A stretch of 60,002 bases of DNA from positions 4,047-64,048 of the forward strand of contig CAYPDV010000002.1 of assembly GCA_964409525.1 (NCBI GenBank). The letters run 5' to 3'. The notes beneath the pieces are model-generated. The model saw nothing but the letters and a program-made list of their open reading frames with translations, had not been told where the DNA came from and ran no database searches. How positions within the stretch are numbered: position 1 is the stretch's first letter; every line of letters begins with the position of its first letter. Source of the DNA: an uncultured Gemmatimonadaceae bacterium (lineage in GTDB: Bacteria > Gemmatimonadota > Gemmatimonadetes > Longimicrobiales > Gaopeijiaceae). This document shows positions 749 through 54,760 of the stretch, in pieces. A program made the translations under genes and the position numbers.

Positions 749-937
749 CGGGGGGTGCGCACGGCAGGGACCGCGCCACGGTGCGCGTCCTCCCCGCGCC
801 GAGACGTCCGGCCGCCGGGCGGTCGTCGGCAGTCCAGCGCGGTGGATCCGGGGGCGCCCGGGGGCTTCAGATGGCGCGGATCCTGCAGCCGGAGCGAGGT
901 CTCGCGGTGAGCTTCCTCCCACCTCCCCGGCTTCCGC

Positions 938-3331: not shown

Positions 3332-3334
3332 GCC

Positions 3335-3607
3335 GTGTGCCTGGGGATCCCCGGACGGGTCGAGGAGTTCGTCACCGACGACCGGCACATCGCCCGGGTG
3401 GACGTATCCGGCGTGCGTCGGAAGGTCAACGTCGCGCTCCTCCTGCCGGACGGGCTCGAGGTCGACGACTGGGTGCTCATCCACGTCGGCTTCGCCCTCT
3501 CGAAGATCGACGAGGAGGAAGCGGCGGAGACCTGGGCGTTTCTCGAGAGTCTCGGCGGCGAGCTCGACCAGGAGCTCGAGGACTTCACCGGGAGTGACAT
3601 CGGATGA
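3335..3607 (+). CDS. hypC: Hydrogenase assembly chaperone HypC/HupF
   Basis: 90 aa. Canonical N-terminus M-C-L-G-I-P-G-RV, then ...DDWVLIHVGFALSKIDEEEA. GTG start 3 nt after the hypF stop. Confidence 0.92.
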   Translation: MCLGIPGRVEEFVTDDRHIARVDVSGVRRKVNVALLLPDGLEVDDWVLIHVGFALSKIDEEEAAETWAFLESLGGELDQELEDFTGSDIG

Positions 3608-4149
3608 AGGGGTCGGAGCTCCAGGCGCTCGGACGCACCCGCTTCTCGGCCGTGGCCGAGGCCTCCGACGTCTTCTTCGACCGCGAGGCCGACCGCATCA
3701 GCACGGCGTGCCGCGACATGGCGCGCCGCTTCCATCGCGGCGGGCGACTCCTGGCCGTGGGTGAGGGCGCCGCGGGCCGCTCCGACGCCCGCCACGTGGC
3801 GGTGGAGTTCGTCCATCCGGTTCTCGTCGGCAAGCGCGCGCTTCCGGCGCTGGCGCTCGAGGCCCCGCAGAGCGGACCCCGGCGGCTCGCCACCCTCTCC
3901 GAGCCGGACGACATGCTGCTGGCGATGTCCGCCCGGGGCGCCGGCCGCCTGGACGCATGGACGGAGAAAGCGCGTGAGCGGGGCCTCCTCACGCTCGCGA
4001 CGCTCGGACGGGAGAGCCTCGAGGTCGACCACCTCTTCGTGGTGGCACACGACGATCCCACGGTCGTCCAGGAGGTCCACGAGACCCTCTACCACGTGCT
4101 CTGGGAGCTGGTGCACGTCTTCTTCGAGAACGAGAAGGTGCTCGCATGA
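3604..4149 (+). CDS. SIS-domain (GmhA/phosphoheptose-isomerase-like) protein, divergent copy
   Basis: 181 aa. GGRLLAVGEGAAGRSDARHVAVEFVHPVLVGKRALPALAL parallels the GmhA G-N-G-G-S-x-x-D-A-x-H...alPaiaL block but with substitutions. ATGA overlap with hypC. Confidence 0.7.
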   Translation: MKGSELQALGRTRFSAVAEASDVFFDREADRISTACRDMARRFHRGGRLLAVGEGAAGRSDARHVAVEFVHPVLVGKRALPALALEAPQSGPRRLATLSEPDDMLLAMSARGAGRLDAWTEKARERGLLTLATLGRESLEVDHLFVVAHDDPTVVQEVHETLYHVLWELVHVFFENEKVLA

Positions 4150-4451
4150 CACCGGTGGCGTCCGACGCGGGAGACGCCGGTGGCGGGAGCCCGGCATCGT
4201 GCGAGCCCACCGACCACGGTCCGGGGCACTGCGTGGTGTGCACCGACGAGGGCCGGGTGGGGCGCGTCCTCGAGATCGTCGACGCACGCTCTGCGAGGGT
4301 GCGCTTCGACGACGGCGACGAGGTGGTCGCCCTCGATCTCGTGGACGGGGCGGAGGTCGGAGTGGATCTCGTCGTCCACGGGGGGTTCGCGATCGCCTCG
4401 CTGGCGGGCGATGCAGGCGCCCTGCGCTCCCGCAGGACCCGCCGTGGCTGA
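4146..4451 (+). CDS. Second HypC/HupF-like chaperone
   Basis: The C-terminal 70 aa resemble HypC (CTDEGRVGRVLEIVD...VDLVVHGGFAIASL). The long ORF starts with an ATGA overlap at 4146. An in-frame GTG at 4236 would give the functional M-C N-terminus (MCTDEGRV...), so the true start may be 4236. Confidence 0.7.
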   Translation: MTPVASDAGDAGGGSPASCEPTDHGPGHCVVCTDEGRVGRVLEIVDARSARVRFDDGDEVVALDLVDGAEVGVDLVVHGGFAIASLAGDAGALRSRRTRRG

Positions 4452-5190
4452 CCCCACCCGCGGCCTCTACCCCTTCCTGGACGACGAGCGCACCTCCTCG
4501 GCCGCCGTGGAGGAGAGGGTCCTGGCCGAGGTCCGCGAATCCACGCTCGCCAAGGCGCGCGCCGTGACCGCCCTCAGGGACGCCCTCTGGGCACGATCCG
4601 GGGAGGCCCTCTGCCGCGCGGCCGTGATGATGGCCAGCTCGTTCCGCGACGGCGGGAAGGTCCTCTCCTTCGGCAACGGGGGAAGCGCGACGGACGCCGA
4701 GGACCTGGTCGCCGACCTGCTCCATCCCCCGGACCCGGAGGCGGATTCCCTGCCGGCGCTCGACCTCGGCGCCGACCCCGCGATCCTGACGGCGCTGGCC
4801 AACGACATCGGCCCCGACCACGTCTTCCTCCGGCAGCTCGTCGCGTACGGCCGGGCCGGGGACGTGGCGGTCGGGTTCAGCACCAGCGGCCGGAGCGGAA
4901 GCGTGGTGGAGGCGCTCCGTGAGGCGGCTCGGCGGGGTCTCGGAACCCTCGCCTTCACCGGCTACGACGGGGGCGTGCTCCGCGACGCGAGCTGGCTCGA
5001 CGTCCTGGTGGTCGCACCGTCCCAGCACATCCCCCGGATCCAGGAGGCCCACGCCACCGCCTACCACACCCTCCTCGTCCTGGTGCGCCACCTCCTCGCT
5101 TCCGAGGCGCCCCGGTCGGGTCACTCGACGTCCGCACCTTCCGCATCGTCCCGGCCCGCCGGGACCTCCGCGCACCCCGGGCTCCGATGA
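4444..5190 (+). CDS. SIS-domain phosphoheptose-isomerase-like protein (GmhA family)
   Basis: In-frame GTG at 4444 within ORF 4180..5190 (VADPTRGLYPF...), overlapping the previous stop as GTGGCTGA. GGKVLSFGNGGSATDAEDLVADL..., GDVAVGFSTSGRSGSVVEAL and LAFTGYDGG are typical GmhA/SIS blocks. Confidence 0.8.
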   Translation: MADPTRGLYPFLDDERTSSAAVEERVLAEVRESTLAKARAVTALRDALWARSGEALCRAAVMMASSFRDGGKVLSFGNGGSATDAEDLVADLLHPPDPEADSLPALDLGADPAILTALANDIGPDHVFLRQLVAYGRAGDVAVGFSTSGRSGSVVEALREAARRGLGTLAFTGYDGGVLRDASWLDVLVVAPSQHIPRIQEAHATAYHTLLVLVRHLLASEAPRSGHSTSAPSASSRPAGTSAHPGLR

Positions 5191-6386
5191 AGCACCTCGA
5201 CGAGTACCGCGACCCGGTCGTCGCCCGGCGCCTCCTGGACCGGATCGCCGACCTCGCCGACGACGACGAGTTCAACCTCATGGAGGTCTGCGGGGGTCAC
5301 ACGTACACGATCTACCACCACGGGATCGACCAGCTCCTGCCCGACGGGGTGGAGCTGGTCCACGGCCCGGGGTGCCCCGTCTGCATCATGCCGATGGGGC
5401 GCGTGGACGACGCCCTCGACATCGCCCGGCGCGAGAACGTGCTCTTCACCACCTTCGGCGACATGATGCGGGTGCCGGGGAGCGAGGAGAGCCTGCTGGA
5501 CGCGAAGGCGCAGGGGGCCGAGGTCCGCTTCGTCTACTCCCCGCTCGACGCGCTCCGGATCGCGACGGAGAACCCCGACCGCGAGGTGGTCTTCTTCGCC
5601 GTCGGCTTCGAGACGACCGCCCCCTCGACGGCCGTGACGCTGCTCCGCGCACGGGAGGCCGGCATCGGCAACTTCTCGGTCTTCTGCAACCACGTCACGA
5701 TCCTGCCGGCGATCAAGGCGATCCTCGACTCGCCGGGGATGCTCCTCGACGGTTTCCTCGGCCCGGGCCACGTGTCCACGATCATCGGCACCGAGCCGTT
5801 CCGCTGGATCCCGGAGCGCTACGAGCGCCCGGTCGTCATCTCCGGCTTCGAGCCCCTCGACATCATCCACTCCGTGCTCATGCTCCTGGAGCAGCTCCGG
5901 GGCGGGCGACGCGAGGTCGAGAACCAGTACAAGCGCGTCGTGCGCCCGGAGGGGAACCCGAAGGCGGTCGAGGCGATCCACGAGACGATGGAGATGCGGC
6001 CGCAGTACGAGTGGCGGGGCCTCGGCTTCATCAGCGAGAGCGCGCTCCGGATCCGGGACGAGTTCGCCGACTGGGACGCGGAGCGGCGGTTCCCGGTCCC
6101 GGGGATCCGCGTGGCGGACCCCAAGGCGTGCCAGTGCGGCGAGGTCCTGAAGGGAGTCCTCAAGCCGTGGGAGTGCCGCGTCTTCGGAACCGAGTGCACC
6201 CCCGACGATCCGCTCGGAAGCCCGATGGTATCTTCCGAGGGCGCCTGCGCCGCGGCGTTCAAGTACGGCCGTCTCGGGCTGAGGGAGAAGGCCCGGGCGG
6301 AGCGCGACGGCGCTGCCCTGCCGATCGTGGGATCCAGGCCCGCGCCCGAGCCGGACCGGGAGCCACGGCCGGGGGAGGCACCGTGA
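5187..6386 (+). CDS. hypD: Hydrogenase maturation Fe-S protein HypD
   Basis: 399 aa. MKHLDEYRDP..., EVCGGHT, GPGCPVC and FETTAPS motifs. ATGA overlap with the upstream gene. Confidence 0.95.
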   Translation: MKHLDEYRDPVVARRLLDRIADLADDDEFNLMEVCGGHTYTIYHHGIDQLLPDGVELVHGPGCPVCIMPMGRVDDALDIARRENVLFTTFGDMMRVPGSEESLLDAKAQGAEVRFVYSPLDALRIATENPDREVVFFAVGFETTAPSTAVTLLRAREAGIGNFSVFCNHVTILPAIKAILDSPGMLLDGFLGPGHVSTIIGTEPFRWIPERYERPVVISGFEPLDIIHSVLMLLEQLRGGRREVENQYKRVVRPEGNPKAVEAIHETMEMRPQYEWRGLGFISESALRIRDEFADWDAERRFPVPGIRVADPKACQCGEVLKGVLKPWECRVFGTECTPDDPLGSPMVSSEGACAAAFKYGRLGLREKARAERDGAALPIVGSRPAPEPDREPRPGEAP

Positions 6387-7489
6387 GCGCGGAGAACGGC
6401 CGGGGCCTCTCCGAGGTCCTCCGGGAGATCGAGGAGGCGGAGCGGACCCGGCGCGAGGGGGGAAGCGCCTCCGTCGGGCCCCGGATCACGCTCAGCCACG
6501 GCTCGGGCGGGAGGGCGACCCAGAAGCTCATCGACGGACTTTTCCGCCCCCTTCTCGACGATCCCGTCCTCGGCCGGATGGACGACGCGGCCGTCCTCGA
6601 GCTGGACGGGATGGAGGCGCGGCTCGCCTTCACCACCGACTCCTTCGTCGTGCGGCCACTCTTCTTCCCGGGAGGCGACATCGGCTCCCTCGCGGTCCAC
6701 GGGACGGTGAACGACCTCGCCGTGGTCGGCGCACGCCCCCTCTTCGTCTCCGTGGGCCTGATCCTCGAGGAGGGGCTGGACACGGAGGTCCTCGAGCGGG
6801 TCGTGCGCTCGCTCGGCGAGGCGGCGGACCGGGCCGACGTCCGGGTGGTCGCCGGCGACACCAAGGTGGTGGAGAAAGGGAAGGGCGACGGCCTCTACCT
6901 GAACACGTCCGGGATCGGCGTGGTGCGCCCCGACGTCGAGCTCTCTCCGGCCGGTGCCCGCGCGGGCGACCGGATCCTCGTCTCCGGCTCGATCGGCGAG
7001 CACGGGGTCGCCGTCCTGCTCGCCCGGGAGGATCTGGCCCTCGAGTCGGACATCGTGAGCGACACGGCCCCGCTCAACGGCCTCACGCGGGTCCTCCTCG
7101 ACGAGGCGGGCGAGGGTGTGCGCTGTCTCCGGGACGCCACCCGGGGGGGCGTGGCCGCGGTCCTCAACGAGATCGCCCGCGCTTCGGGCGTCGCGGTGGA
7201 GCTGCACGAGGAGTCGATCCCGCTGCGGAGGGACGTGCGCGGCGCCTGCGAGCTGCTCGGGATCGACCCGCTGCACATGGCGAACGAGGGGCGGATGGTC
7301 GCGATCGTCTCGCCCGACCGCGCCGACCGGGCGCTGGAGGTCCTGCGCTCCCATCCCCTGGGAGAAGGCGCGCGGGAGATCGGCGTCGTCGGAGAAGATC
7401 CGCCGGGGACGGTGTACGTGCGGACGGCGCTCGGCGGGAGCCGGGTGCTGGACACGCTGGTCGGCGACGCGCTGCCCCGGATCTGCTGA
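6383..7489 (+). CDS. hypE: Hydrogenase maturation carbamoyl dehydratase HypE
   Basis: In-frame GTG at 6383 in ORF 4919..7489 (GTGA overlap with hypD). ITLSHGSGGRATQKLI and the AIR-synthase-like fold, with the diagnostic C-terminus ...GDALPRIC. The part of the ORF upstream of 6383 overlaps hypD and is an artefact. Confidence 0.95.
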   Translation: MSAENGRGLSEVLREIEEAERTRREGGSASVGPRITLSHGSGGRATQKLIDGLFRPLLDDPVLGRMDDAAVLELDGMEARLAFTTDSFVVRPLFFPGGDIGSLAVHGTVNDLAVVGARPLFVSVGLILEEGLDTEVLERVVRSLGEAADRADVRVVAGDTKVVEKGKGDGLYLNTSGIGVVRPDVELSPAGARAGDRILVSGSIGEHGVAVLLAREDLALESDIVSDTAPLNGLTRVLLDEAGEGVRCLRDATRGGVAAVLNEIARASGVAVELHEESIPLRRDVRGACELLGIDPLHMANEGRMVAIVSPDRADRALEVLRSHPLGEGAREIGVVGEDPPGTVYVRTALGGSRVLDTLVGDALPRIC

Positions 7490-7565
7490 GGAGGCGAGAG
7501 GAGTCGGCGCCGGAGGGCGGCACGGTCCTCGCAGCCCCTGACGGCACTCACGGACGGAGGGGACG

Positions 7566-8867
7566 ATGGCCCAGACGGACACGCCGGTCCCGGTCCAGGA
7601 GCGGGGCAGCGAGATCCCCCCCTCGGGGTCGCTCCACGCCACTTCGCAGGAGCGCCTCGAGCGGGCCCGGGAGAAGCCCCGCTCCGAGCTCCTGCCGGAA
7701 GGGCCGATCGACACGATCCACGTCTTCTGGCTCGCCGGTATGAGCTGCGACGGCTGCACCATCTCCACCGCCGGAGCGACGAACCCGAGCATCGAGGACC
7801 TCCTCAACGGGACGCTTCCCGGGCTTCCGAAGGTGGAGCTACACCACCCGGTGCTCTCCGTCGAGGCGGGCGACGAGTTCGTCCGCAACTACGAGATGGC
7901 GGTGGAGGGAGAGCTCGAGGCGCCGTACGTCGTGGTCTACGAGGGCTCGATCGCGGACGAGTCGATCGCCCAGCGTACGGGCGGATACTGGTCGGCCATG
8001 GGCGTGGAGGTGATGGACGGCAGTCCGCAGCCCCGGTCCACGGCCGGCTGGCTCGAGCGGATGGCCGAGGATGCGGCGGCCGTGATCGCCATCGGAACGT
8101 GCGCCACGTGGGGGGGGATCCCGGCGGCCGTGGGAAACCCCACCGGCGCGATGAGCGTGATGGACCTCCTCGGCGAGGACTTCCGGAGCGCCTTCGGGCT
8201 CCCGGTGGTGAACGTCCCCGGGTGCGCTCCGCTGGGCGACAACTTCACGGAGACGGTAGCCGCGATCCTCCTCTACCTGCAGGGGATCGGGCCGATTCCC
8301 GAGTTCGACTCCCTCGGCCGGCCCGCCTGGCTCTTCGAGGAGACGGTCCACCACGGCTGCACCCGGGCCGGATACTACGAGGAAGGCCTCTTCGCCGAGG
8401 AGTACGGGGACAAGGAGTGCCTGGTGGAGGTCGGCTGCTGGGGGCCGGTGGTCAACTGCAACATCGTGAAGAGGGGGGCCATCAACCACCACGGCGGATG
8501 CATGGAGGCCGGAGGCGTCTGCATCGGCTGCACGATGCCGGGCTTTCCCGACAAGTTCAGCCCCTTCTACAAGACCCCTCCCGGCTCCATGCTCTCGACC
8601 ATGGGATCGCGCACCCTGGGCTCGGTGGTCCGGCGCCTCCGCTCCCTGTCCAACGAGAACCTGAACCGCGAGCCCCGCTGGGACGCTGCGGATCACGTGC
8701 CCACCGGGTGGGACCGGGTCCGCGAGCCGGGGTGGTTCCGGGACGTGCTCCACTTCTTCTACGAGGTCTGGCAGTTCTGGGGCGTGAAGAAGCCCGGCCG
8801 GAAGGGAGACGACGTGGAGTACCCCCTGTCCCGGCCGGGCCGGGACGAGGACTACCCGCTCGAATGA
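7566..8867 (+). CDS. [NiFe]-hydrogenase small subunit, no Tat signal, with C-terminal extension (HhyS/HylS-like)
   Basis: 433 aa. Cluster-ligand blocks GMSCDGCTIS, IGTCATWGGIP, VPGCAPLGD, HHGCTRAGYYE, CLVEVGCWGPVVNCN and GGCMEAGGVCIGCTMPGFPDKF. The N-terminus has no RRxFxK twin-arginine motif. RBS GGAGGGGA lies before ATG 7566. Confidence 0.93.
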   Translation: MAQTDTPVPVQERGSEIPPSGSLHATSQERLERAREKPRSELLPEGPIDTIHVFWLAGMSCDGCTISTAGATNPSIEDLLNGTLPGLPKVELHHPVLSVEAGDEFVRNYEMAVEGELEAPYVVVYEGSIADESIAQRTGGYWSAMGVEVMDGSPQPRSTAGWLERMAEDAAAVIAIGTCATWGGIPAAVGNPTGAMSVMDLLGEDFRSAFGLPVVNVPGCAPLGDNFTETVAAILLYLQGIGPIPEFDSLGRPAWLFEETVHHGCTRAGYYEEGLFAEEYGDKECLVEVGCWGPVVNCNIVKRGAINHHGGCMEAGGVCIGCTMPGFPDKFSPFYKTPPGSMLSTMGSRTLGSVVRRLRSLSNENLNREPRWDAADHVPTGWDRVREPGWFRDVLHFFYEVWQFWGVKKPGRKGDDVEYPLSRPGRDEDYPLE

Positions 8868-8883
8868 GCCCGAGGAGGATGCC

Positions 8884-9210
8884 GTGACCCCCTTCGAGGT
8901 CCCCGAGCTCTTCACCCGCTGGGAGTTCTGGTACGCGGTGGGAGGGGCGGTGGTCGTCGTCGCCGCGACCCTCCTCGTCGCGATCGTGCTCGTGGCGCGA
9001 AGCATCGACCGCGAGGCCCGACGGGCCCTGGAGGCGGTCCGGCGGATCCGCGGGAACACCGACGCGATCTGGGAGCTCGAGCCCGTCCTCCGCGACGTGG
9101 AAGCCGTCCATGGCCACGCCCGTGCGGTCGCCGAGGCGACCGACGGCCTGGCCAGGACCGTCCACGGGTCTCTCGGGGGCGCGGCGGCAGGATCGGAGGC
9201 GGAGCGATGA
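8884..9210 (+). CDS. Small single-pass membrane protein 1 of 5 between the hydrogenase subunit genes
   Basis: 108 aa. GTG start preceded by GAGGAGGA. One N-terminal hydrophobic helix (WYAVGGAVVVVAATLLVAIVLVA), then an Arg/Ala/Glu-rich helical tail. Stop overlaps the next start (ATGA). Confidence 0.7.
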   Translation: MTPFEVPELFTRWEFWYAVGGAVVVVAATLLVAIVLVARSIDREARRALEAVRRIRGNTDAIWELEPVLRDVEAVHGHARAVAEATDGLARTVHGSLGGAAAGSEAER

Positions 9211-9545
9211 CGGCCTGGATCGCGTCGATGGACGCCGAGACCCTCTGGTGGATCAGCCTCGGGGTCGGAGCGGTGGTGGCCGGTGTCGTCGCCCTCCTCC
9301 TCGCCTGGATCGTGCGCTCGGCCGACGCCATCCGTCGCACCGTGGCGGAGATATGGGTGCAGGGCCCCTACGTCGCGAACAACACCGCCCACCTGGACCT
9401 GCTCCGCCGCATCGGCGTCGCGGGAGACCGTGCCGTGCGGGAGGTGGGCCGGGCGAGCGACGCGGTGGGCCGCCTCCGGGAGCACGCGGCCGGATGCCCC
9501 GGCTGCCCCTGGTGCGTGACCGGCTGGGAGGGAGGGAGACGATGA
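9207..9545 (+). CDS. Small single-pass membrane protein 2 of 5, C-terminal CPGCPWC motif
   Basis: 112 aa. TM helix WWISLGVGAVVAGVVALLLAWIV, a helical tail, and a C-terminal GCPGCPWCVTGW. ATGA overlaps on both sides. Confidence 0.7.
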   Translation: MTAWIASMDAETLWWISLGVGAVVAGVVALLLAWIVRSADAIRRTVAEIWVQGPYVANNTAHLDLLRRIGVAGDRAVREVGRASDAVGRLREHAAGCPGCPWCVTGWEGGRR

Positions 9546-9868
9546 CGCTCCTCACGGTGCTCACCATCGTGCTCGTCCTCCTCCTGGTGGCGATCCTCGT
9601 GGTCGGCCTGCTCCGTATCATCGGCCTCCTCGAGGCGATCGGGGGCGGGCAGATCAGCTACATGGGCGAGAACATGGGCGACCGGATGAGCGGTCTCGCC
9701 AAGATCCGCTGGGGCCTCCGGGCCATCGAGCGACAGACGGGCTCCATCGGGCCCTCGACCCAGCAGGTGGACGGAGTGCTGGAGCGGATGGACGGCGGTC
9801 TGGCGGAGGTGGAGGAGGGGATGGACGCCCTCCTCTCCCACCTCGAGGCGCAGGGGGCGGGCCGATGA
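9542..9868 (+). CDS. Small single-pass membrane protein 3 of 5
   Basis: 108 aa from the in-frame ATG at 9542 of ORF 9110..9868. MTLLTVLTIVLVLLLVAILVVGLLRIIGLL TM helix, then a helical tail. ATGA overlaps on both sides. Confidence 0.7.
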   Translation: MTLLTVLTIVLVLLLVAILVVGLLRIIGLLEAIGGGQISYMGENMGDRMSGLAKIRWGLRAIERQTGSIGPSTQQVDGVLERMDGGLAEVEEGMDALLSHLEAQGAGR

Positions 9869-10230
9869 GCGTGCGCCTGACCGACTCGACGGCCGTCCTC
9901 GCCCTCTGGTGGATCGCCCTCGGACTGACGGTCCTCGTGATCGTCCCCCTCACGATCTATCTCCTGCATCGCACGCTGCGAGCGTCCCGCCAGATCCGGC
10001 GGCTCACGCACGAGGCGCTCGCGGCGGGCGGCGGGATCGCCGACCACGTGGGCTCGCTGGCCGCCCTGCGCGGCACCGTCGAGAAGGCGCGCGTGCTGCC
10101 GGACCACGGATCCCGGCTGGAGGAGCGGGCGGCTCGGCTCGAGGGGGTCCTCGCCGGGCGAAGGGGCGACGCCTCCGCCGAGGGCCCGGGGAGCCCGCCG
10201 GCCGGTCCCGCGTCAGGAGCGCTGCCATGA
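9865..10230 (+). CDS. Small single-pass membrane protein 4 of 5
   Basis: 121 aa. TM helix AVLALWWIALGLTVLVIVPLTIYLL, then a helical Arg/Ala-rich tail. ATGA overlaps on both sides. Confidence 0.7.
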   Translation: MSVRLTDSTAVLALWWIALGLTVLVIVPLTIYLLHRTLRASRQIRRLTHEALAAGGGIADHVGSLAALRGTVEKARVLPDHGSRLEERAARLEGVLAGRRGDASAEGPGSPPAGPASGALP

Positions 10231-10490
10231 TCCTCTACTGGTCGACCCTGGCGGTGATCGGGGCCGTGGTCCTGGTGCTCGCCGGCTACCTGATCGCCAT
10301 CGCGTGGACCCTCTGGATGGCGCGCGTCCACGTCCGGGACCTCGCCGACGGCCTGGAGCGGGTGGCGGAGCGCACCGACGGCGTCGACGTACCCGTGGCG
10401 GAGCTCCGGGACGTGATGTCCCGGACCGAGTCGTCCTTCGCGGCGGTCCGGAAGCACCTCGCCGCCGCCGCCACCACCTTCGAGCGCTGA
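10227..10490 (+). CDS. Small single-pass membrane protein 5 of 5
   Basis: 87 aa from the in-frame ATG at 10227 of ORF 9909..10490. MILYWSTLAVIGAVVLVLAGYLIAIAWTLW TM helix plus a helical tail. ATGA overlap with the previous ORF. Confidence 0.7.
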   Translation: MILYWSTLAVIGAVVLVLAGYLIAIAWTLWMARVHVRDLADGLERVAERTDGVDVPVAELRDVMSRTESSFAAVRKHLAAAATTFER

Positions 10491-10517
10491 GCCGACCCGC
10501 CCTCCTCCGAGCCCGCC

Positions 10518-12419
10518 ATGTGCTTCAAGAACCTTCCGATCGACTTCGACGAGAACGGCACCGCCACCCTCCGGGAGGCGATTCCGGATCCGTACACCCA
10601 GAAGGAGATCCGGCACAGCGCACCGAAGCAGCTCGACCGGGACCAGATCGAGGAGCTCCTGGCGAAGAACGGCTACATCGAAGCGAAGGACTTCGATCCG
10701 GTGACCCGCGTCGCCGGGGCCCTCGCCTTCCACACCGTCTGCGACCTCGAGAAGGGGGAGGTGCTCGAGGCCCGCTCCATGGGCACCCTCTTCCGGGGCT
10801 ACGAGATCATCGCCATGGGGCGGGACCCGCGGGACGCCATCTACATCACGAGCCGCGCATGCGGGGTCTGCGGCGGAGTGCACTCCACGTGCTCGGCGAT
10901 GGCGATCGAGATGGCCTTCGGGATCTCGCCACCCCCGCTGGGCATCGTGATCCGCAACATGGCGCTGGCCCTCGAGTTCCTCTACGACCACCCGCTCCAC
11001 CTCTTCCTGCTCGCCGGCCCCGACTACTCGGAGAAGGTCGTCCGGCAGACGAATCCGTCGTACTGGGACCGCGCGCAGGGGTGGTCGTGTCCCTCCTCGG
11101 AGCTCCACGGCTTCGACACCATGGCCGAGCTGATGACGGAGATGAATCCGCTCACCGGCAGCCTCTACCTCGAGGCGCTGCACATGACGCGGGTCACCCG
11201 GGAGGCCTACGCCCTCATCTGCGGCAAGTACCCGCACCCCCAGACCATCGTCCCCGGGGGGATGAGCACCACGGTCGACCCGACCGTGATGAACGAGGTC
11301 TACAACCGGCTCCGGAAGTTCTTCGACTACTCGCAGAAGGTGGTGGGGATCTGGGACGACCTCACCGAGTTCTTCTACGACATGGAGCCCCGGCAGCGGG
11401 AGGTCGGATCGCGGTCGAGGAACCTCGTCGACACCGGCATCTTCGACCACCACGAGGCGTACGACGCGAAGTACGAGAACGCCGGGACGTGGGGCCGGCG
11501 CCGCTGGCTCACGCCGGGCGTGATCGTCGACGGTGAGCTGGTGACCACCGACCTCCACCAGATCAACATGGGGGTCGAAGAGTTCGTGGAGCACTCCTTC
11601 TACGAGGAGTGGGGCTCGGAGCGTCATCCCACCGACTCCCTGGGCAACCCGCTGAGCCGCTACCATCCGTGGAACCAGGAGACCCGCCCGAAGCCGACCG
11701 GCCAGAACTGGCGGGAGAAGTACTCCTGGGCGAAGTCGCCCCGGTGGGACCGCCAGTCCATGGAGGCGGGCTCCTACGCCCGCCTCTGGACGACCGCGCT
11801 GGCGCAGGAGCACCCGGAGAGCCGGTACCTGGAGGCCACCGGGCACTCCCTCCGGATGCGGGTTCCCCGGGGCTCGCTTCCGGAGAGGGAGCTCGAATGG
11901 CACGTCCCCGAGAGCTGGAACGCCTTCGAGCGGAACCGGGCCCGGGCCTACTGCATCCCGGAGACCGCGCTGATCGCCCTGGCCAACTGGGAGATCGGCA
12001 TGGACCTGATGAAGCGCGGCGAGACGAAGGTGTCCACCCCCTTCGAGGTCCCGAAGAAGGGGCGGCAGGTGGGGGTCGGCTTCTGGGGGGCCGGCCGGGG
12101 CTGGCTCACGCACCACCTGGAGCTCCAGGACGGCAAGATCGCGAACTACCAGATCGTCACACCCTCCACCTGGAACGCCTCGCCGCAGGATCCGTGGGGA
12201 AACCCCGGCCCCTACGAGGAGGCCGTCCTCAACACGCCGATCCTGGAGGAGCGGGAGGAGAACGGGAGCGGGGGCGGCTCCTTCCGCGGAGTCGACATCC
12301 TGCGGACCATCCGGAGCTTCGATCCGTGCATGCCGTGCACCACGCACATGCACGTCGACGGCACGGACCGCGTGGTCACCACCGAGGTCAACACCTGTGC
12401 GTGCGGGGTGGAGGATTGA
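10518..12419 (+). CDS. [NiFe]-hydrogenase large (catalytic) subunit, group 1h/1l-like
   Basis: 633 aa. N-terminal DPVTRVAG. L1 motif TSRACGVCGGVHS (Cys codons at 10859 and 10868). C-terminal L2 motif SFDPCMPCTTH (Cys codons at 12327 and 12336), followed by a 23-aa tail (MHVDGTDRVVTTEVNTCACGVED) of the kind removed by the maturation endopeptidase. Confidence 0.95.
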   Translation: MCFKNLPIDFDENGTATLREAIPDPYTQKEIRHSAPKQLDRDQIEELLAKNGYIEAKDFDPVTRVAGALAFHTVCDLEKGEVLEARSMGTLFRGYEIIAMGRDPRDAIYITSRACGVCGGVHSTCSAMAIEMAFGISPPPLGIVIRNMALALEFLYDHPLHLFLLAGPDYSEKVVRQTNPSYWDRAQGWSCPSSELHGFDTMAELMTEMNPLTGSLYLEALHMTRVTREAYALICGKYPHPQTIVPGGMSTTVDPTVMNEVYNRLRKFFDYSQKVVGIWDDLTEFFYDMEPRQREVGSRSRNLVDTGIFDHHEAYDAKYENAGTWGRRRWLTPGVIVDGELVTTDLHQINMGVEEFVEHSFYEEWGSERHPTDSLGNPLSRYHPWNQETRPKPTGQNWREKYSWAKSPRWDRQSMEAGSYARLWTTALAQEHPESRYLEATGHSLRMRVPRGSLPERELEWHVPESWNAFERNRARAYCIPETALIALANWEIGMDLMKRGETKVSTPFEVPKKGRQVGVGFWGAGRGWLTHHLELQDGKIANYQIVTPSTWNASPQDPWGNPGPYEEAVLNTPILEEREENGSGGGSFRGVDILRTIRSFDPCMPCTTHMHVDGTDRVVTTEVNTCACGVED

Positions 12420-12444
12420 GGCCCGCTCGAAGGGGGGCCGCTCC

Positions 12445-13080
12445 GTGAGACCGCTCCGGGTGGATCCGGCGAACGCCGCCGGACCCCGCGTCCTGGTGGG
12501 CGGCGTCGGCTACTCCTTCCTCCGCGACTTCTCGGTGGGCCCGGTGCTCTCCGGTGAGCTCGTGGAGGAGTCGTGGCCCGCCGGGGTGGTGGTGGAGGAC
12601 CTCCACTACGGACCCGTGGCCGTCGCGCAGCGCCTCATGGAGGAGAGCCCCTCCTTCGATCGGGTCGTCGTGTTCGGGGCGGTCCGGCGCGGGCGTCCGG
12701 CCGGCACCGTCCACGCCTACCGGTGGAGCGGAGAGCTCCCCGACGAGGAGGAGCTCCAGGCCCGGGTGTCGGAGGCGGTGACCGGCGTGGTGGGCCTGGA
12801 CAACCTCGTCCTCGTCACGGCGGCTCTGGACACGCTTCCCGGCGAGGTGGCCGTGGTGGAGGTCGAGCCCGCGGTGGAGGAGGCGGGCGAGGAGTTCAGC
12901 CCGGCGGTCGCGGAGTCCCTCGAGCGGATCCGCGCCCGGGTGCGGGAGGCCGCCGGGACGGGGTTCCACCGGTTGCCGGTGGAGCCCCTCGCCGGGGACG
13001 CGGGGGAGACCGCGCCTCGCCGCGGCCCGGGTTCGAGCGCGGAGTCCGAGACGGAGACCGTGGGCGAGGTGGGGGCATGA
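12445..13080 (+). CDS. Degenerate hydrogenase-maturation-protease-like protein (probable pseudo-protease or chaperone)
   Basis: Layout RVLVGGVGYSFLRDFSVGPVL ... FDRVVVFGAVRRG ... parallels the HybD/HupD blocks (vLvlGiGN..DDg.G ... d.vilvDA). The acidic/His metal-ligand positions are replaced. Preferred start is GTG 12445 after GAAGGGGGG. The track ORF starts at 12397, overlapping the large subunit. Confidence 0.6.
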   Translation: MRPLRVDPANAAGPRVLVGGVGYSFLRDFSVGPVLSGELVEESWPAGVVVEDLHYGPVAVAQRLMEESPSFDRVVVFGAVRRGRPAGTVHAYRWSGELPDEEELQARVSEAVTGVVGLDNLVLVTAALDTLPGEVAVVEVEPAVEEAGEEFSPAVAESLERIRARVREAAGTGFHRLPVEPLAGDAGETAPRRGPGSSAESETETVGEVGA

Positions 13081-13805
13081 CCTCTCCCGATCTCGAGGAG
13101 GTGGTGGCCCGCCTGGACCGCATGGTGGCCGAGGCCGAGGCGCACGACGACCCCCGGATCCGGGAGTGGGCGTCGGGAATGGTCGAGTCGCTGGCCCGGC
13201 TCCACGGGGAGGGCCTCCGGCGCCTCACGGCGCTCCTTGTCGGGCATGGCGAGCTCCTCCGGCAGGCTCTGGAGGACCCGGTGGTGGCGAACCTCCTCCT
13301 GCTTCACGACGCCACGATCGGAGAGGAGGGGAGGAGCGTGGTGGAGGTGACGGAGCGGACCTCGGGGGCAGGGGAGGGTGCGGGGCCGGCCTCCTTCCGG
13401 GTCCGGATGGACGACGGGGCGGCGGCCTCCTTCGTGCCGCTCGAGAAGGTGCAGCGACTCGATCGGAAGCTGAGGAACGGGACGGCGGGGCCGGCCCCCT
13501 CCCGTAGGGTGGCGGCAGGACACGTCGCCGAGGTGGAGCCGGGCTCCCTGCGGGGGATCCTCGAGGACGGCGCCGCGATCCTTCTCGCGCGGGTGGGCGA
13601 TTCCCTACGGGCGTACCGCAACGCCTGTCCCGGCTCCATCCTCCCGCTCCACCTCGGGGCCCGGGACGGCGACGTGGTGCGCTGCCCCTGGCACGGGTGC
13701 CGCTTCCACCTGGACGACGGGTCCGCGGTCGAGGGACAGGGGCCGGGCCTGGACCCCCTTCCCGTGGAGGTGAAGGGCGACGAGGTCTGGGTGGTGGTTC
13801 GATGA
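13077..13805 (+). CDS. Hydrogenase-associated protein with C-terminal Rieske-like [2Fe-2S] domain (HhyE/HylE-like)
   Basis: 242 aa from the in-frame ATG 13077 of ORF 12573..13805 (ATGA overlap). The C-terminus has CPGSILPLH ...17 aa... CPWHGCRFHLDDG. The second Rieske box is canonical and the first lacks the usual C-x-H histidine. The N-terminal about 80 aa are a helical domain. Confidence 0.75.
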   Translation: MTSPDLEEVVARLDRMVAEAEAHDDPRIREWASGMVESLARLHGEGLRRLTALLVGHGELLRQALEDPVVANLLLLHDATIGEEGRSVVEVTERTSGAGEGAGPASFRVRMDDGAAASFVPLEKVQRLDRKLRNGTAGPAPSRRVAAGHVAEVEPGSLRGILEDGAAILLARVGDSLRAYRNACPGSILPLHLGARDGDVVRCPWHGCRFHLDDGSAVEGQGPGLDPLPVEVKGDEVWVVVR

Positions 13806-14311
13806 GCCCCCCCGCAGCGGGCCCGGTCTCCGCGACCCGCACGCTCGTCGCGGGAATGGGAAACGTCCTGGAGGAGGACGACGGCTTCGGCGTGCGAGTG
13901 CTCGAGGCTCTGGCCCACGAGGAGCTCCCGGAAGGCGTGCGGCTGACGGAGGTCGGCACCGGAGGGATCCACCTCGTCCAGGACCTGATGGACGGCTACG
14001 ACGCGCTGATCCTGGTGGACGCGGTGGACCGGGAGGGCGAGCCGGGAACCGTCTATACGCTCCGGCCGGAGGTGCCGGATCTGGACGACTTCGACGAGGA
14101 CGAGCGCGGCCGGTTCCTGGCCGACACGCACTACACCGTGCCGGCCAAGGTCCTGGTGATGGCACAGGCCTTGGGAATCCTTCCCGAACGGCTCTACATT
14201 GTGGGGTGCCAGCCGGGAAGGACGGAGCTCGGGCTCGACCTGACCGAGAGGGTCGACCGGGCGGTGGGGCGGGGGGTCGCCGAGGTCCGGCGGCTGCTGG
14301 AGTGCCATTGA
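13802..14311 (+). CDS. [NiFe]-hydrogenase maturation endopeptidase (HybD/HupD family)
   Basis: 169 aa from ATG 13802 (ATGA overlap). TLVAGMGNVLEEDDGFGVRV, ALILVDAVDREGEPGTVY and LADTHYTVPAKVL are the canonical blocks, including the Glu/Asp, Asp and His metal ligands. Confidence 0.9.
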   Translation: MSPPAAGPVSATRTLVAGMGNVLEEDDGFGVRVLEALAHEELPEGVRLTEVGTGGIHLVQDLMDGYDALILVDAVDREGEPGTVYTLRPEVPDLDDFDEDERGRFLADTHYTVPAKVLVMAQALGILPERLYIVGCQPGRTELGLDLTERVDRAVGRGVAEVRRLLECH

Positions 14312-14369
14312 AGAAGCGCGGCGGGTCGTACGCGGAGGAAACTCGCCGATTCGAGACCAGGGAGGAGCG

Positions 14370-14963
14370 ATGAACCCGACAGGCACGCCGAGCGCTCCGG
14401 AAACACCGGAGCCCGGAAGCACTCGGGGCCGATCCGGGGGAGGAAGGGGCTGGACCGCCTTCCGGGTGGCGCTGGCCCTCTCCGCCCTCTGGCTCACGGG
14501 GTACGTCGCCTTCCGGTACTCCGTCTTCAACGCGCCGGACCACGGCACGGCGTACTTCTACATCTTCCCCGCCTCCCTGGTGCTGGCGGCGGTGGCCCTG
14601 GTGCTCGCCTTCCGTCCCTTCCTCCTCTCGCGGATGCCGGGGATCGGCGGGACGGCCCTCCGGGGCACCCTCACCGCCTACGGGGCCGTCTGGATGGCGA
14701 GCGGTGTCGCCTGCACCCTCTCCCTCCTGGAGGGGATCGCGATCGCCCCCCTCGGAGGGAGCATCGACATGATCCACATGGTCAGCGATCACGTCTTCCT
14801 CCCCCTCGCGGTCGCGACGCTGGCCTGGGCGCCGGGATGGCTCGCCGCGAGGCTCGGGGCGAGCTCCGCGGTGCGCGAGGCCGCCAGAAGCGCGGGACGG
14901 CCGGGCGCCCGGATGCCCGGCTCCCCGGTCGCCGGGAAGACGGGAGGCTCGATCCGTGGCTGA
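14370..14963 (+). CDS. Hypothetical integral membrane protein (about 4 TM), hydrogenase-cluster associated
   Basis: 197 aa. RBS GGAGGAG before the ATG. Four hydrophobic segments, with His residues in APDHG and DMIHMVSDH. No recognisable family. Confidence 0.6.
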   Translation: MNPTGTPSAPETPEPGSTRGRSGGGRGWTAFRVALALSALWLTGYVAFRYSVFNAPDHGTAYFYIFPASLVLAAVALVLAFRPFLLSRMPGIGGTALRGTLTAYGAVWMASGVACTLSLLEGIAIAPLGGSIDMIHMVSDHVFLPLAVATLAWAPGWLAARLGASSAVREAARSAGRPGARMPGSPVAGKTGGSIRG

Positions 14964-15381
14964 GGGGATCGCCGGGGGGGCTCCCGACGTGCCTGACGGA
15001 ACCTCGGGCTCGGACGCCGGGCTCCGCCGCCGGGACGAGGTCCTCCAGATCCTCTTCTGGATGCGGGGGGAGGGGCTGGGTGACAGCACCACTCCGGCGG
15101 ACCTCCTGCCCCTCCTGGGCGAGGGAGCGGCCGAGCTGGAGACGACGCTCCACGCCCTGCGGGAGATGGGCCTCGTCGAGCGTACGGAGGACGAGCGGTA
15201 CCGGCTGACGGACAGGGGGGTCGCCGAGGGCGGCCGCCGGTTCGCGGACGAGTTCAGCGGCCTCACCGCCCAGGCTCACGGCGAGTGCGCCGATCCGGAC
15301 TGCGACTGTCACGACGATCCCGCCGCCGCGATCGACTGTCTGGCCCGACGCCACGGCCACGACGCCCACACCCCCGCCTGA
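14956..15381 (+). CDS. Winged-helix (MarR/DtxR-like fold) protein with Cys/His-rich C-terminal tail
   Basis: 141 aa. GTG start overlaps the previous stop by 8 nt. LQILFWMRGEGLGDS...LHALREMGLVERTEDERYRLTDRG looks like a wHTH. The tail HGECADPDCDCHDDP...RRHGHDAH is metal-ligand-rich. Confidence 0.6.
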   Translation: MAEGIAGGAPDVPDGTSGSDAGLRRRDEVLQILFWMRGEGLGDSTTPADLLPLLGEGAAELETTLHALREMGLVERTEDERYRLTDRGVAEGGRRFADEFSGLTAQAHGECADPDCDCHDDPAAAIDCLARRHGHDAHTPA

Positions 15382-15411
15382 CCCGGAATCCCCCGAAGGG
15401 AGAGTACGAGC

Positions 15412-16194
15412 ATGCACGTGGCCATCGCGGGAAAGGGAGGGACCGGAAAGACCACCCTGTCGGCCATCCTCTGCCGGACGCTGGCCCGACAGGGGCGGGG
15501 CGTCCTGGCCGTGGACGCCGACTCGAATCCGAACCTGGCGGCGGTGCTCGGCTTCGAGCGCGTCGCCGATCTGCCCGAAGGGCTCCCCCGGAGCCTCCTC
15601 GAGCGGGTCGAGGAGCCGGACGGGACCACCCGGCTGGCCCTGACCCGGCCGGTGGGCGAGGTGCTGGAGGAGTACGGCCGCACGGGCCCGGACGGGGTGC
15701 GGCTGATGGTGATGGAGGCCGTCGGCCACGGGGGCGGCGGGTGAATGTGCTCCGCCCACGCCGCGGTCCGCGGCTTCGTCGGAGAGATCGTCTCGGCGCC
15801 GGAGGCCGTCGGTGACGTCGTGCTCGACATGGAGGCCGGGCTCGAGCACCTGAGCCGGGGCACCGGGCGGCACGTGGACGCCGTCGTCGCCGTCCTCGAG
15901 CCCTACTACCGCGCCCTGGAGACGGGCCGGCGGGTCGTCGAGCTCGCGCGCGAGCTCGGGATCCGCCATACCTTCGGAGTCGCGAACAAGGTGCGGGGAG
16001 GCCCCGACCGCGAGGCGCTGGAGGAGTTCGCGGAGCGCCACGAGCTCACCCTGCTGGGCGAGGTCCCCTGGGACGAGACCCTCCTGGAGGCGGAGCGGGC
16101 CGGCAGCGCACCGGTGGACCACGCGCCGGACGCGCCGGCCGTGCGGGCGGTGCGGCAGGTGACGGAGCGCCTGCAGGAGCGGATCGAGGCGTGA
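15412..16194 (+). CDS. CooC-type (MinD/ParA-class) Ni-insertion ATPase with one in-frame TGA at the CxC metal site: candidate selenoprotein, otherwise a split gene or pseudogene
   Basis: ORFs 15412..15744 and 15745..16194 are in the same frame, separated only by TGA 15742-15744. Deviant Walker A AIAGKGGTGKTT. VLDMEAGLEHLSRGT and VANKVR blocks align with the CODH accessory protein CooC. The TGA falls where CooC has the first Cys of G-G-x-x-C-x-C; here the sequence is GGGG-[TGA]-M-C-SAH. Confidence 0.8.
15750..15784 (+). other. SECIS-like extended hairpin immediately downstream of the in-frame UGA
   Basis: Lower stem CUCCG (15750-15754) pairs with CGGAG (15780-15784). A 5x5 internal loop follows. 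Upper stem GCCGCG (15760-15765) pairs with CGCGGC (15769-15774). The apical sequence GGUC lies 24-27 nt from the U of the UGA. Confidence 0.45.
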
Positions 16195-16263
16195 GCGACC
16201 GGATCGAGGCGTGAGGTGCCGGCCCGCGCGGACCGAGACGAGACCCGAAACACGGAGCGAGGA

Positions 16264-17115
16264 ATGAGCGACGTACGCACGGCGACCGGAGCGTCCCTCG
16301 GGGGGGCGGGCATCCTGGCGGTCTGTTCCTGCGGAGCGGCCACCGGCACGGTGGGCCTCCTCGGCGTGGCGGGGATCGCCGCGACGAACCCCGTGGTCCA
16401 CCCCTTCTTCCTCGGAGTCGGGGCCGTGCTCCTCGTCTGGGGGCTCTGGCAGATCAGCCGGAAGGCCGCCGTCCTCGCCGCCGGGGGGCTCGCCCTCATC
16501 GCCGGCGGCGCGCTCCTGGCCCCCGCGTCGGTGATGACGCAGGCCGGGATCCCGCATCCACCCGGGCACATGGCCGGATTCGCGCTCTACGTCCTCGGCG
16601 CGGCGGCGATCGTGCTCGGCTTCCTCCGGGCGTACCGTCCGCCCGAAGGAAGCAGAGGCGGATACACCGCGGCCGCGGGCATGGGGCTCGCCGCCGGGTG
16701 CAGCTGTTGCCTGGTGACCGGCTCGGTGGCCGGCATCCTCGGCACCTTCGGCCTCGGGATGCCCTGGATCTACTCCGAGCCCGTCATCTTCACGACGGCG
16801 ATGGGGCTCGTGACCTATGGCCTCGTGCGTCTCGGGGGTTGGCGCGCCGCATGGCCCGTCCCGGTCGGAGCCCTCGTCCTCTGGGGTGGCCCCCGGGTGC
16901 TCCGCGCCCTCGCGGAGGAGATCCCCTTCCACGGCGTGAACCTCCGCTTCATCCCGGCCTATCTGGTGACGCTCGCCGGCATCGGGCTCGTCCTCTGGTC
17001 CTTTCCGCGGGCCTATCGTGCCGCACGGGCCGCGCGTGAAGCCGCCCCACCGGCCGAGCCACCCGCGCCGCCGGCGGCGCCCCCGGTCCTCGAGGGAGCG
17101 GGCACGGCCGTCTGA
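16264..17115 (+). CDS. Integral membrane protein with intramembrane CSC / CSCC motifs (putative thiophilic-metal permease)
   Basis: 283 aa from ATG 16264 (RBS GGAGCGAGGA); the track ORF starts at 16216. About 8 TM segments with an internal duplication. AGILAVCSCGAATGTVGLLGV and GLAAGCSCCLVTGSVAGILG recall MerT/MerC-style Cys pairs inside TM helices. The C-terminal tail is Pro/Ala-rich. Confidence 0.65.
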   Translation: MSDVRTATGASLGGAGILAVCSCGAATGTVGLLGVAGIAATNPVVHPFFLGVGAVLLVWGLWQISRKAAVLAAGGLALIAGGALLAPASVMTQAGIPHPPGHMAGFALYVLGAAAIVLGFLRAYRPPEGSRGGYTAAAGMGLAAGCSCCLVTGSVAGILGTFGLGMPWIYSEPVIFTTAMGLVTYGLVRLGGWRAAWPVPVGALVLWGGPRVLRALAEEIPFHGVNLRFIPAYLVTLAGIGLVLWSFPRAYRAARAAREAAPPAEPPAPPAAPPVLEGAGTAV

Positions 17116-17212
17116 GCGGGAGGGAGCACGGCCGCCCCCTTCTTTTGCGGCGCCCGTGCGGGGCCCGTAGCTTCGCACGCTCCGGTCCGCTCCCTCCCCT
17201 CACCCGGCTGCC

Positions 17213-18124
17213 GTGCCCCTCCTCCGCGCGGACGATCTCACCAAGCGGTACCCCGGCGGGGTCGTCGCCCTCGACCGTCTCACCCTCGAGCTCGAGCCGG
17301 GGCTGGTCGGCCTCGTCGGTGCGAACGGGGCGGGAAAGAGCACCTTCCTCAAGATCCTCCTCGGGCTCCTCGCCCCCGACGGGGGCAGCGTCGAGGTGCT
17401 CGGCCGGGACCCCACCGCCGAGCCGATCGGCGTCCGCGAGCGCACGGGCTACCTGCCCGAGCACGACTGCCTTCCCACGGATCAGAGCGCGGCGGACTTC
17501 GTGGCGCACATGGCGCGGATCTCCGGGCTGCCCCGGAGCGCCGCCCGGGAGCGCTCCGCCGAGATGCTCCGCCACGTCGGCCTGTACGAGGCGCGCTACC
17601 GGATGATGGACGGCTACTCGACCGGCATGAAGCAGCGGGTGAAGCTCGCACAGGCGCTGGTCCACGATCCGGACCTCCTCCTCCTCGACGAGCCCACCAA
17701 CGGGCTCGATCCGGCCGGGCGCGACGAGATGCTCGACCTGATCCGGAGGACGGGCGAGGAGATGGGGATCAGCGTCGTCGTCTGCTCCCACCTGCTCGGC
17801 GAGATCCAGCGCGTGTGCGACCACCTCGTGGCGATCGACGCGGGACGGATCGTGCACTCGGCCTCGATCGGCTCCTTCACCCGGGAGACGGCCGTGCTCA
17901 CGGTCGAGGTGGACGAGGGCGCCGATCGCCTGGCGCGGCGCCTCGCCGACGACGGTGTGGAGGTGGAAGGAGACGGTCCCGGTGTGCTGCGGATGGCCCT
18001 CGACGACGACGGTCTGTACGACCTCGTGCGGGACGCCGCCGCCGATCTCGGGATCCCCCTGGTCCGGCTGCAGCGGAGACGCCACCGGCTCGAAGACCTC
18101 TTCCGGTCAAGCGAAATTGCCTGA
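17213..18124 (+). CDS. ABC transporter ATP-binding protein
   Basis: 303 aa. Walker A GANGAGKST, signature YSTGMKQR and Walker B LLLLDEP. Confidence 0.9.
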   Translation: MPLLRADDLTKRYPGGVVALDRLTLELEPGLVGLVGANGAGKSTFLKILLGLLAPDGGSVEVLGRDPTAEPIGVRERTGYLPEHDCLPTDQSAADFVAHMARISGLPRSAARERSAEMLRHVGLYEARYRMMDGYSTGMKQRVKLAQALVHDPDLLLLDEPTNGLDPAGRDEMLDLIRRTGEEMGISVVVCSHLLGEIQRVCDHLVAIDAGRIVHSASIGSFTRETAVLTVEVDEGADRLARRLADDGVEVEGDGPGVLRMALDDDGLYDLVRDAAADLGIPLVRLQRRRHRLEDLFRSSEIA

Positions 18125-54041: not shown

Positions 54042-54054
54042 GTCCGCTCTCCCG

Positions 54055-54561: not shown

Positions 54562-54760
54562 CTCGTCTCCCGTCGTCGAATTCGGATCGTCGTCTCGGTC
54601 GCCCCGGCGCGTCGATGCGTCGACGCGGCCGGTGGATGGAGAGTGACGTTGCAGAATCCGCACCGCGGCCGGCGCTCGGGGACCATTGCGGCACGAGTCC
54701 GACCGGGGAATGTTGCGGCAGCGTAGCGGTGCCCCGTTTCTCCTTCCCGATCGCGCCCCG

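Follow-up and report, generated by a model that had tools for sequence, protein, structure and literature searches.

Why should the two structural genes of a [NiFe]-hydrogenase be separated by five small genes, and what might the intervening proteins do for the enzyme? The question is raised by a stretch of 60,002 nucleotides (hereafter the window) from an uncultured Gemmatimonadaceae bacterium (contig CAYPDV010000002.1, positions 4,047 to 64,048), where the small-subunit gene hylS and the large-subunit gene hylL stand on either side of a cassette of five genes, T1 to T5. We argue that the locus is a group 1l (Hyl) hydrogenase operon and that T1-T5, judging by their sequences, are most likely stoichiometric membrane-anchor or stalk subunits.

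The arrangement itself is already known. Ortiz et al. (10.1101/2020.08.06.239558; PNAS 2021) defined group 1l, with HylTM1-5 encoded between HylS and HylL and accompanied by HylE and HupD, and described this layout in Hymenobacter roseosalivarius and many metagenome-assembled genomes (MAGs); it was revisited in 2026 (PMC13554262). The window is another member, in a Gemmatimonadota-like genome. Group 1l enzymes are reported to outnumber all other hydrogenases in Antarctic desert soils, where they are proposed to sustain life on atmospheric H2 (10.1101/2020.08.06.239558; PMC13554262). At stake is how electrons pass to the respiratory chain from a cytoplasmic enzyme lacking a twin-arginine translocation (Tat) signal; HylTM1-5 are the candidates for this task. 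What we add is incremental: two paralogue clades, a predicted N-out/C-in topology, a cysteine motif confined to the interposed layout, other positions of the cassette, and its absence from group 1h control loci.

All seven genes lie on the + strand. The gene hylS (7566-8867) starts with ATG and encodes 433 residues carrying the Pfam domains Oxidored_q6 and NiFe_hyd_SSU_C, while hylL (10518-12419) encodes 633 residues matching NiFeSe_Hases (E=1.4e-82). Each gene in between encodes a single-pass protein with one transmembrane (TM) segment: T1 (8884-9210; 108 residues, TM ~19-37), T2 (9207-9545; 112 residues, TM ~18-36), T3 (9542-9868; 108 residues, TM ~6-24), T4 (9865-10230; 121 residues, TM ~11-29) and T5 (10227-10490; 87 residues, TM ~8-26). 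T1 begins with GTG, and GAGGAGGA is found 6 nt upstream of it. A preliminary description of the window, made from its letters alone, had noted subunit genes 1.65 kb apart, five co-directional open reading frames (ORFs) of 108, 112, 108, 121 and 87 residues, and four consecutive ATGA stop/start overlaps. The coordinates agree on every point: 1,650 nt separate the hylS stop from the hylL start, the lengths match, and the overlaps (T1/T2, T2/T3, T3/T4 and T4/T5) fall at 9207, 9542, 9865 and 10227.

The GC content of the window is 70-75%, so open frames by themselves mean little. T1-T5 are genuine conserved protein-coding genes because three kinds of evidence coincide. Their in-frame GC content is 0.91-0.99 at the third codon position (GC3) and 0.41-0.58 at the second (GC2), both like the values of hylS (GC3 0.94) and hylL (GC3 0.96). 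For each of them, positional orthologues occur in 14 further loci from two phyla (Gemmatimonadota and Burkholderiales), at 31-54% identity and with gene order kept. Finally, among all six-frame ORFs of the window, hidden Markov models (HMMs) of the family match T1-T5 alone.

Every one of the five has a single 19-residue Kyte-Doolittle window above 2.5 (2.5-3.4), close to the N-terminus; no such segment occurs in HylS or HylL. Over 75 proteins of the family, lysine and arginine average 2.27 in the 15 residues after the TM segment versus 0.72 before it. By the positive-inside rule, the predicted topology is N-out/C-in, which would place the helical tails of 60-90 residues that follow the N-terminal anchor in the cytoplasm, the compartment required of an enzyme without a Tat signal. 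The shared architecture proposed in the preliminary description thus stands for the N-terminal helix of all five proteins; its Arg/Ala-rich tail holds for T1, T2, T4 and T5 and fails for T3, whose tail is Gly/Leu-rich.

Iterative HMM searches, run against the six-frame ORFs of the window and 80 related loci, converged from each of the five seeds on the same 241 ORFs in 81 sequences, and 240 of these contain a TM segment. We then compared tails only, as profiles built from the positional orthologues of 15 loci with the N-terminus and TM segment removed. Under hhalign, T1-T2 (92%), T1-T4 (97%), T2-T4 (97%) and T3-T5 (95%) gave high probabilities, against 42% for T1-T3, at most 9% for the remaining pairs and at most 1.1% for reversed-column controls. 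These profiles point to one family with two paralogue clades, A (T1, T2 and T4) and B (T3 and T5); the gap between within-clade and between-clade scores suggests at least two ancestral genes, themselves distantly related. The suspected paralogy is thereby borne out and refined. Polar turn motifs are conserved in mid-tail: I..NT in T1, ANNT.H in T2, G.A.NT in T4, E..T..L.PQV in T3 (within the longer conserved stretch LAK.R.G.RAIE..T..L.PQV) and HT.PL in T5.

In the AlphaFold2 model of T2, computed from 48 sequences (mean predicted local distance difference test score 81), one helix covers residues 10-56, including the TM segment, and another 60-96, with a break exactly at A57-N-N-T60. Relatives of T2 are numerous, with at least 2,746 unannotated in the protein collection. 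Searches of T1-T5 against Pfam, NCBIfam and PADLOC returned sub-threshold noise only (DUF4381, GspM, PspB, HemY_N); we attach no meaning to the two weak GspM matches. Foldseek with the T2 model found no match in the PDB, and the T2 profile met only designed helical bundles among PDB sequences (E of 0.008 or weaker), with no natural protein below 0.2.

For the enzyme itself, the comparison set consisted of the best 80 genome loci and three group 1h references. HylL carries the Ni-Fe ligand motifs RACGVCGGVH and DPCMPCTTH. Among the PDB entries searched, none of which is a group 1l structure, the best match is the group 1h hydrogenase of Cupriavidus necator for both subunits (5AA5_C, E=3e-154 for HylL; 5AA5_A, E=3.9e-109 for HylS). 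HylL is 43.2-44.2% identical to the three 1h references (42.9-43.4% by tblastn) versus 55.1-79.7% to the 80 related loci, none of which exceeds 46.1% identity to 1h. In the published account, 1h and 1l are less than 40% identical, and all hydrogenases of that study belong to one group or the other (10.1101/2020.08.06.239558). Our values are slightly above this, yet the gap to the related loci is clear. A neighbour-joining tree of the large subunits agrees: the window groups with its 80 relatives, and a long branch separates the three 1h references from them. Gemmatimonadota MAGs provide the closest loci (73-79% identity; the closest database protein reaches 83%), and the 80 include six Mackay Glacier (MGR) MAGs of the study by Ortiz et al. 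that defined the group.

HylS bears two further marks. Its proximal-cluster motif is GMSC61DGC64 (codons 7746-7757), where 5AA5 has GLGCDGD; all cognate small subunits whose locus includes their N-terminal part read G[MA]SCDGC, and CDGD is found in the three 1h controls. The sequence GLSCDGD found in locus L014 belongs to a separate, 1h-type small subunit encoded ~3 kb downstream, the locus having lost its own hylS at the contig end. This Chloroflexi MAG (MGR_bin446) thus places a 1l-type large-subunit gene (1-1722) near a 1h-type small-subunit gene (4887-5894), and the two types can be neighbours. HylS also continues for ~57 residues (~377-433; ~8694-8864) beyond the end of the 1h small subunit, which stops ~12 residues past the xEPxW motif (REPRW in the window, DEPKW in 5AA5). 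This extension holds the module PTGW...FFYEVWQ, whose consensus PSGW...FFYxKxQ recurs in all related loci and in none of the 1h references. Finally, HylS has neither a twin-arginine motif nor a hydrophobic N-terminal region, in keeping with the earlier observation that it carries no Tat signal.

These features agree with the published ones. Supplementary Note 1 of Ortiz et al. describes a HylS extension of ~100 residues, a proximal cluster with four cysteines versus an aspartate in 1h, and TM proteins 12-30% identical to one another. The window shares with H. roseosalivarius Hyl five interposed TM genes of low mutual identity, a tri-Cys motif, the four-Cys cluster, the HylS extension, and HylE with HupD; hyp, SIS, CbiA and winged helix-turn-helix regulator genes (the paper lists PadR) lie nearby in both. 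It differs in its Gemmatimonadota-like rather than Bacteroidota host and in an extension of ~57 rather than ~100 residues. Every published feature that we compared was found, and the assignment to group 1l is supported, as judged against the 80 related loci and three 1h references. The statement in the preliminary description that such an insertion characterizes group 1l was correct: Ortiz et al. describe exactly five interposed TM genes.

Interposition turns out to be one layout among several. Gemmatimonadota and Burkholderiales have the order S-T1..T5-L, and several Chloroflexota have four T genes between hylS and hylL. In Bryobacteraceae and Entotheonella, four T genes precede an adjoining hylS-hylL pair; in Acidimicrobiales, three or four do so on the opposite strand; in Solirubrobacterales, five lie ~6 kb downstream of the pair. 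Split 3+2 cassettes also occur, and non-interposed examples include L008, L010, L012, L015, L022, L028 and L053. The layouts track HylL subclades, and so does the HylS extension, ~25-30 residues long in subclades with three T genes versus ~55-70 in those with five. As controls, we took 25 kb (12 kb either side) from each of three 1h loci, C. necator pHG1, Kitasatospora and Mycobacterium plasmids, and found no member of the TM family there, bar one match of the T3 model at E=0.0085. The cassette is faithfully linked to this hydrogenase clade. Its several positions there and its absence from the 1h control loci make the separation of hylS from hylL only one of the ways in which the genes are laid out.

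T2 stands apart by its C-terminal motif H93-A-A-G-C97-P-G-C100-P-W-C103 (codons 9483-9515). His93, Ala94, Cys97, Cys100, Pro101 and Cys103 are invariant over 15 loci and 48 database homologues, and the pattern H-A-x-x-C-x-x-C-P-x-C is present in all 15 complete loci of the interposed type as well as in truncated L009. It is limited to the second TM gene and to loci with the cassette between hylS and hylL, namely those of Gemmatimonadota, Burkholderiales and one Chloroflexia MAG. T2 is probably the published HylTM4. The tri-Cys protein comes second after hylS in the window, and the numbering in the paper may have begun at hylL, given that accession SMB94678 (HylL) comes before SMB94698 (HylS). 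One histidine and three cysteines are also the ligand set of the distal cluster in standard [NiFe]-hydrogenases. A doubtful extension of this likeness is that the motif would bind a fourth Fe-S cluster at a cytoplasmic hairpin tip and so extend the HylS wire toward the membrane, the cassette serving as a mobile, modular membrane adaptor for cytoplasmic hydrogenases. Such a relay is possible for the interposed type only and, if true, would mean two mechanistically distinct coupling modules within group 1l.

We propose the following role for the cassette. The ATGA overlaps would couple translation, so that the five proteins are made in amounts roughly equal to the enzyme, and T1-T5 would assemble as a heteromeric, membrane-anchored helical stalk. 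Its cytoplasmic tails could dock on the 1l-specific C-terminal module of HylS near the distal Fe-S cluster, holding the Tat-less, cytoplasm-facing (HylSL)2 at the membrane so that electrons from H2 reach the quinone pool. They might get there in either of two ways: quinone is brought up to HylS, much as HucM supplies it to Huc, or a cluster held by the His-Cys3 motif of T2 passes them on. Tethering was put forward by the group 1l authors themselves, first on sequence grounds (2020) and later with an AlphaFold3 model (2026; PMC13554262) that shows TM1-5 as tube-like scaffolds beneath (HylLS)2 and the distal clusters next to the TM domains. The same idea in the preliminary description, that these proteins tether or wire a cytoplasm-facing enzyme, agrees with the predicted N-out/C-in topology. 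We put the probability of the stalk or anchor explanation for the group 1l operon as a whole at roughly 0.7.

Two other accounts were considered. High-GC DNA does give rise to many long spurious ORFs, and in the window (72% GC) the gap might be non-coding or T1-T5 chance open frames. In-frame GC3, same-order orthologues in two phyla, the invariant motifs and the abundance of T2 relatives contradict this account so consistently that we give it practically no weight; GC3 and conservation both identify the gap as coding. Alternatively, the enzyme could be a group 1h (Hhy) hydrogenase that acquired an unrelated membrane-gene insertion. The best solved-structure match of both subunits is indeed the 1h enzyme 5AA5, and group 1h (Hhy/Hof, exemplified by C. 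necator HofKG) resembles the window in being cytoplasmic without a Tat signal, in a similar hyp/SIS set and in its link in the literature to atmospheric H2 oxidation. That reading is nonetheless very improbable given 43-44% identity to 1h, the long branch in the tree and CDGC in place of CDGD. In 1h loci, moreover, the two subunit genes adjoin, no TM-family gene lies within 12 kb, and NifU, DUF5947 and DUF6084, typical downstream neighbours, are not seen in the window; the cassette is conserved with the 1l clade instead.

A more serious competitor keeps the anchors and moves the electrons elsewhere: T1-T5 would serve simply as a tether, or else help in assembly or targeting, and the soluble Rieske protein HylE would be the physiological electron acceptor, the stalk containing neither a quinone conduit nor an Fe-S relay. 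In favour of this, the hylE gene belongs to the operon and is ATGA-coupled, Ortiz et al. (10.1101/2020.08.06.239558) call the protein electron-relaying, HhyE of group 1h has been proposed to play a similar acceptor role, and most cassettes other than the interposed ones lack the Cys motif. We still regard this account as unlikely. A simple tether would hardly require five distinct paralogues kept across phyla and a HylS extension whose length covaries with cassette size; the AlphaFold3 model sets the distal clusters beside the TM domains, and HylE of the window was matched by tblastn in only 24 of the 80 loci, a low count that divergence may explain.

Several observations temper the stalk model and the assignment on which it builds. 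The type locus of H. roseosalivarius (HylL SMB94678) was among neither the best 80 genome loci nor the best 120 proteins. Among the related loci, all non-interposed cassettes (Acidimicrobiales, Solirubrobacterales and most Chloroflexota) lack the His-Cys3 motif, and its absence from most other 1l subclades means that an Fe-S relay cannot be the general function. A few loci (L016, L019, L056, L060, L075 and L079) have no cassette within 7 kb, so there it is either farther off or dispensable. The stalk model draws on an AlphaFold3 prediction (PMC13554262) and on genomic linkage, and the literature that we searched yielded no biochemistry on HylTM.

Two known solutions to the coupling problem offer a comparison. 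Cytochrome b anchors (HoxZ/HyaC) couple the small subunit of group 1 membrane-bound hydrogenases to the quinone pool; they are multi-pass dihaem proteins whose partner enzymes are Tat-exported, face the periplasm and have a small subunit with its own C-terminal TM helix. In the window, the predicted anchors are single-pass and the enzyme would face the cytoplasm, and no haem-protein domain was detected with Pfam or NCBIfam. A closer functional analogue may be HucM of Huc, the group 2a hydrogenase of Mycobacterium smegmatis, which forms a homotetrameric hydrophobic tube along which menaquinone travels 94 Angstrom before it reaches the small subunit (Grinter et al. 2023, PMC10017518). There too, a small helical subunit links a Tat-less, cytoplasm-facing, O2-tolerant uptake hydrogenase to the membrane and its quinone. 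The likeness would be functional only: HucM is one peripheral protein without a TM helix that forms a homotetramer, whereas T1-T5 are five TM-anchored paralogues. We do not claim homology, as the T2 profile matched neither HucM nor any other natural protein among PDB chains, which include the Huc entries, and Foldseek returned no fold match either. The clades, the putative HylS docking module, the motif distribution and the covariation of cassette and HylS tail can guide the choice of subunit to mutate, and natural three-gene cassettes may serve as minimal systems.

The remaining genes complete an operon of the order hypFC-SIS-hypDE, hylS, five TM genes, hylL, a hupD paralogue, hylE and hupD, all on the + strand. 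Upstream, Pfam identified hypF (938-3331), hypC (3335-3607), two SIS-domain genes (3604-4149 and ~4180-5190), hypD (5187-6386) and hypE (6383-7489). The two SIS-domain genes follow one another between hypC and hypD (3604-5190), where the C. necator 1h cluster has one; the true start of the second, a GTG-started ORF at 4180-5190, is probably further downstream. No + strand terminator-like site was found in the scanned region 500-17500, which spans the operon. Inside the operon, there are 0 promoter-like sites and 1 terminator-like site (minus strand), below chance expectation, and the window contains no Rfam family.

Downstream, a divergent protease paralogue of the HupD/HybD family (12397-13080; TIGR00072 E=4.5e-13, Pfam HycI E=0.04) overlaps the end of hylL by 23 nt and lies directly 3' of hylL in 76 of 80 loci by tblastn; it might be a non-catalytic, chaperone-like copy. 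Next comes a hylE-like gene (13077-13805), encoding an N-terminal helical region and a C-terminal Rieske [2Fe-2S] domain (Pfam Rieske E=1.3e-9), and then the canonical maturation endopeptidase gene hupD (13802-14311; Pfam HycI E=2.5e-16, TIGR00072 E=6e-34). ATGA overlaps join hylE to the gene before it and hupD to hylE, which is flanked by two paralogous proteases. Related loci also keep HylE and HupD. The + strand gene at 14370-14963, which separates hupD from the regulator gene that follows, encodes a predicted membrane protein with four TM segments and no Pfam family. We considered it as a quinone-reducing partner and rejected it: tblastn recovers it in only 3 of the 80 related loci, and it probably does not belong to the conserved system. 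Two conserved accessory genes, also on the + strand, encode a winged-helix regulator (14956-15381) and a CooC-like P-loop ATPase (15412-16194).

The ATPase gene forms a single reading frame interrupted by one in-frame TGA (15742-15744), which aligns with the first cysteine of the metal-binding C-x-C of CooC1 (PDB 3KJE, E=1.7e-30): GGGG-TGA-M-C-SAH corresponds to GGSQ-C-Y-C. In the same column, 39 genes of related loci have TGC or TGT, 10 more have TGA, and none has TAA or TAG. A hairpin at 15760-15774 (6-bp stem, GTC or GTG loop) lies 19-33 nt downstream of the TGA. Its stem is kept in the TGA genes with compensatory changes (mean 5.7 of 6 pairs) and not in Cys-type genes encoding the same HA(A/T)VR peptide (mean 2.9 of 6). 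A Sec/Cys column pair together with a hairpin is the classical signature of selenocysteine, and the protein is likely a selenocysteine-containing (U-x-C) nickel or maturation ATPase linked to group 1l, with the hairpin as a putative selenocysteine insertion sequence (SECIS). We rejected the TGA as the mark of a split gene: in 6 of the 10 other TGA loci the stop is followed by CTG, not a usual start codon. The window contains no tRNA-Sec or sel gene. A selenocysteine CooC-like ATPase was not reported in the literature that we searched, and it may be a more original lead than the cassette itself.

Two further observations come from the distal part of the window. At 53070-54849 (-), two DUF892 genes (ferritin-like stress proteins) adjoin, the first with two DUF892 stretches. 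At 56116-56727 (+), one ORF fuses a Ribosomal_S30AE hibernation factor domain to a C-terminal cold-shock domain, an unusual combination in what is apparently a dormancy- or cold-adapted genome.

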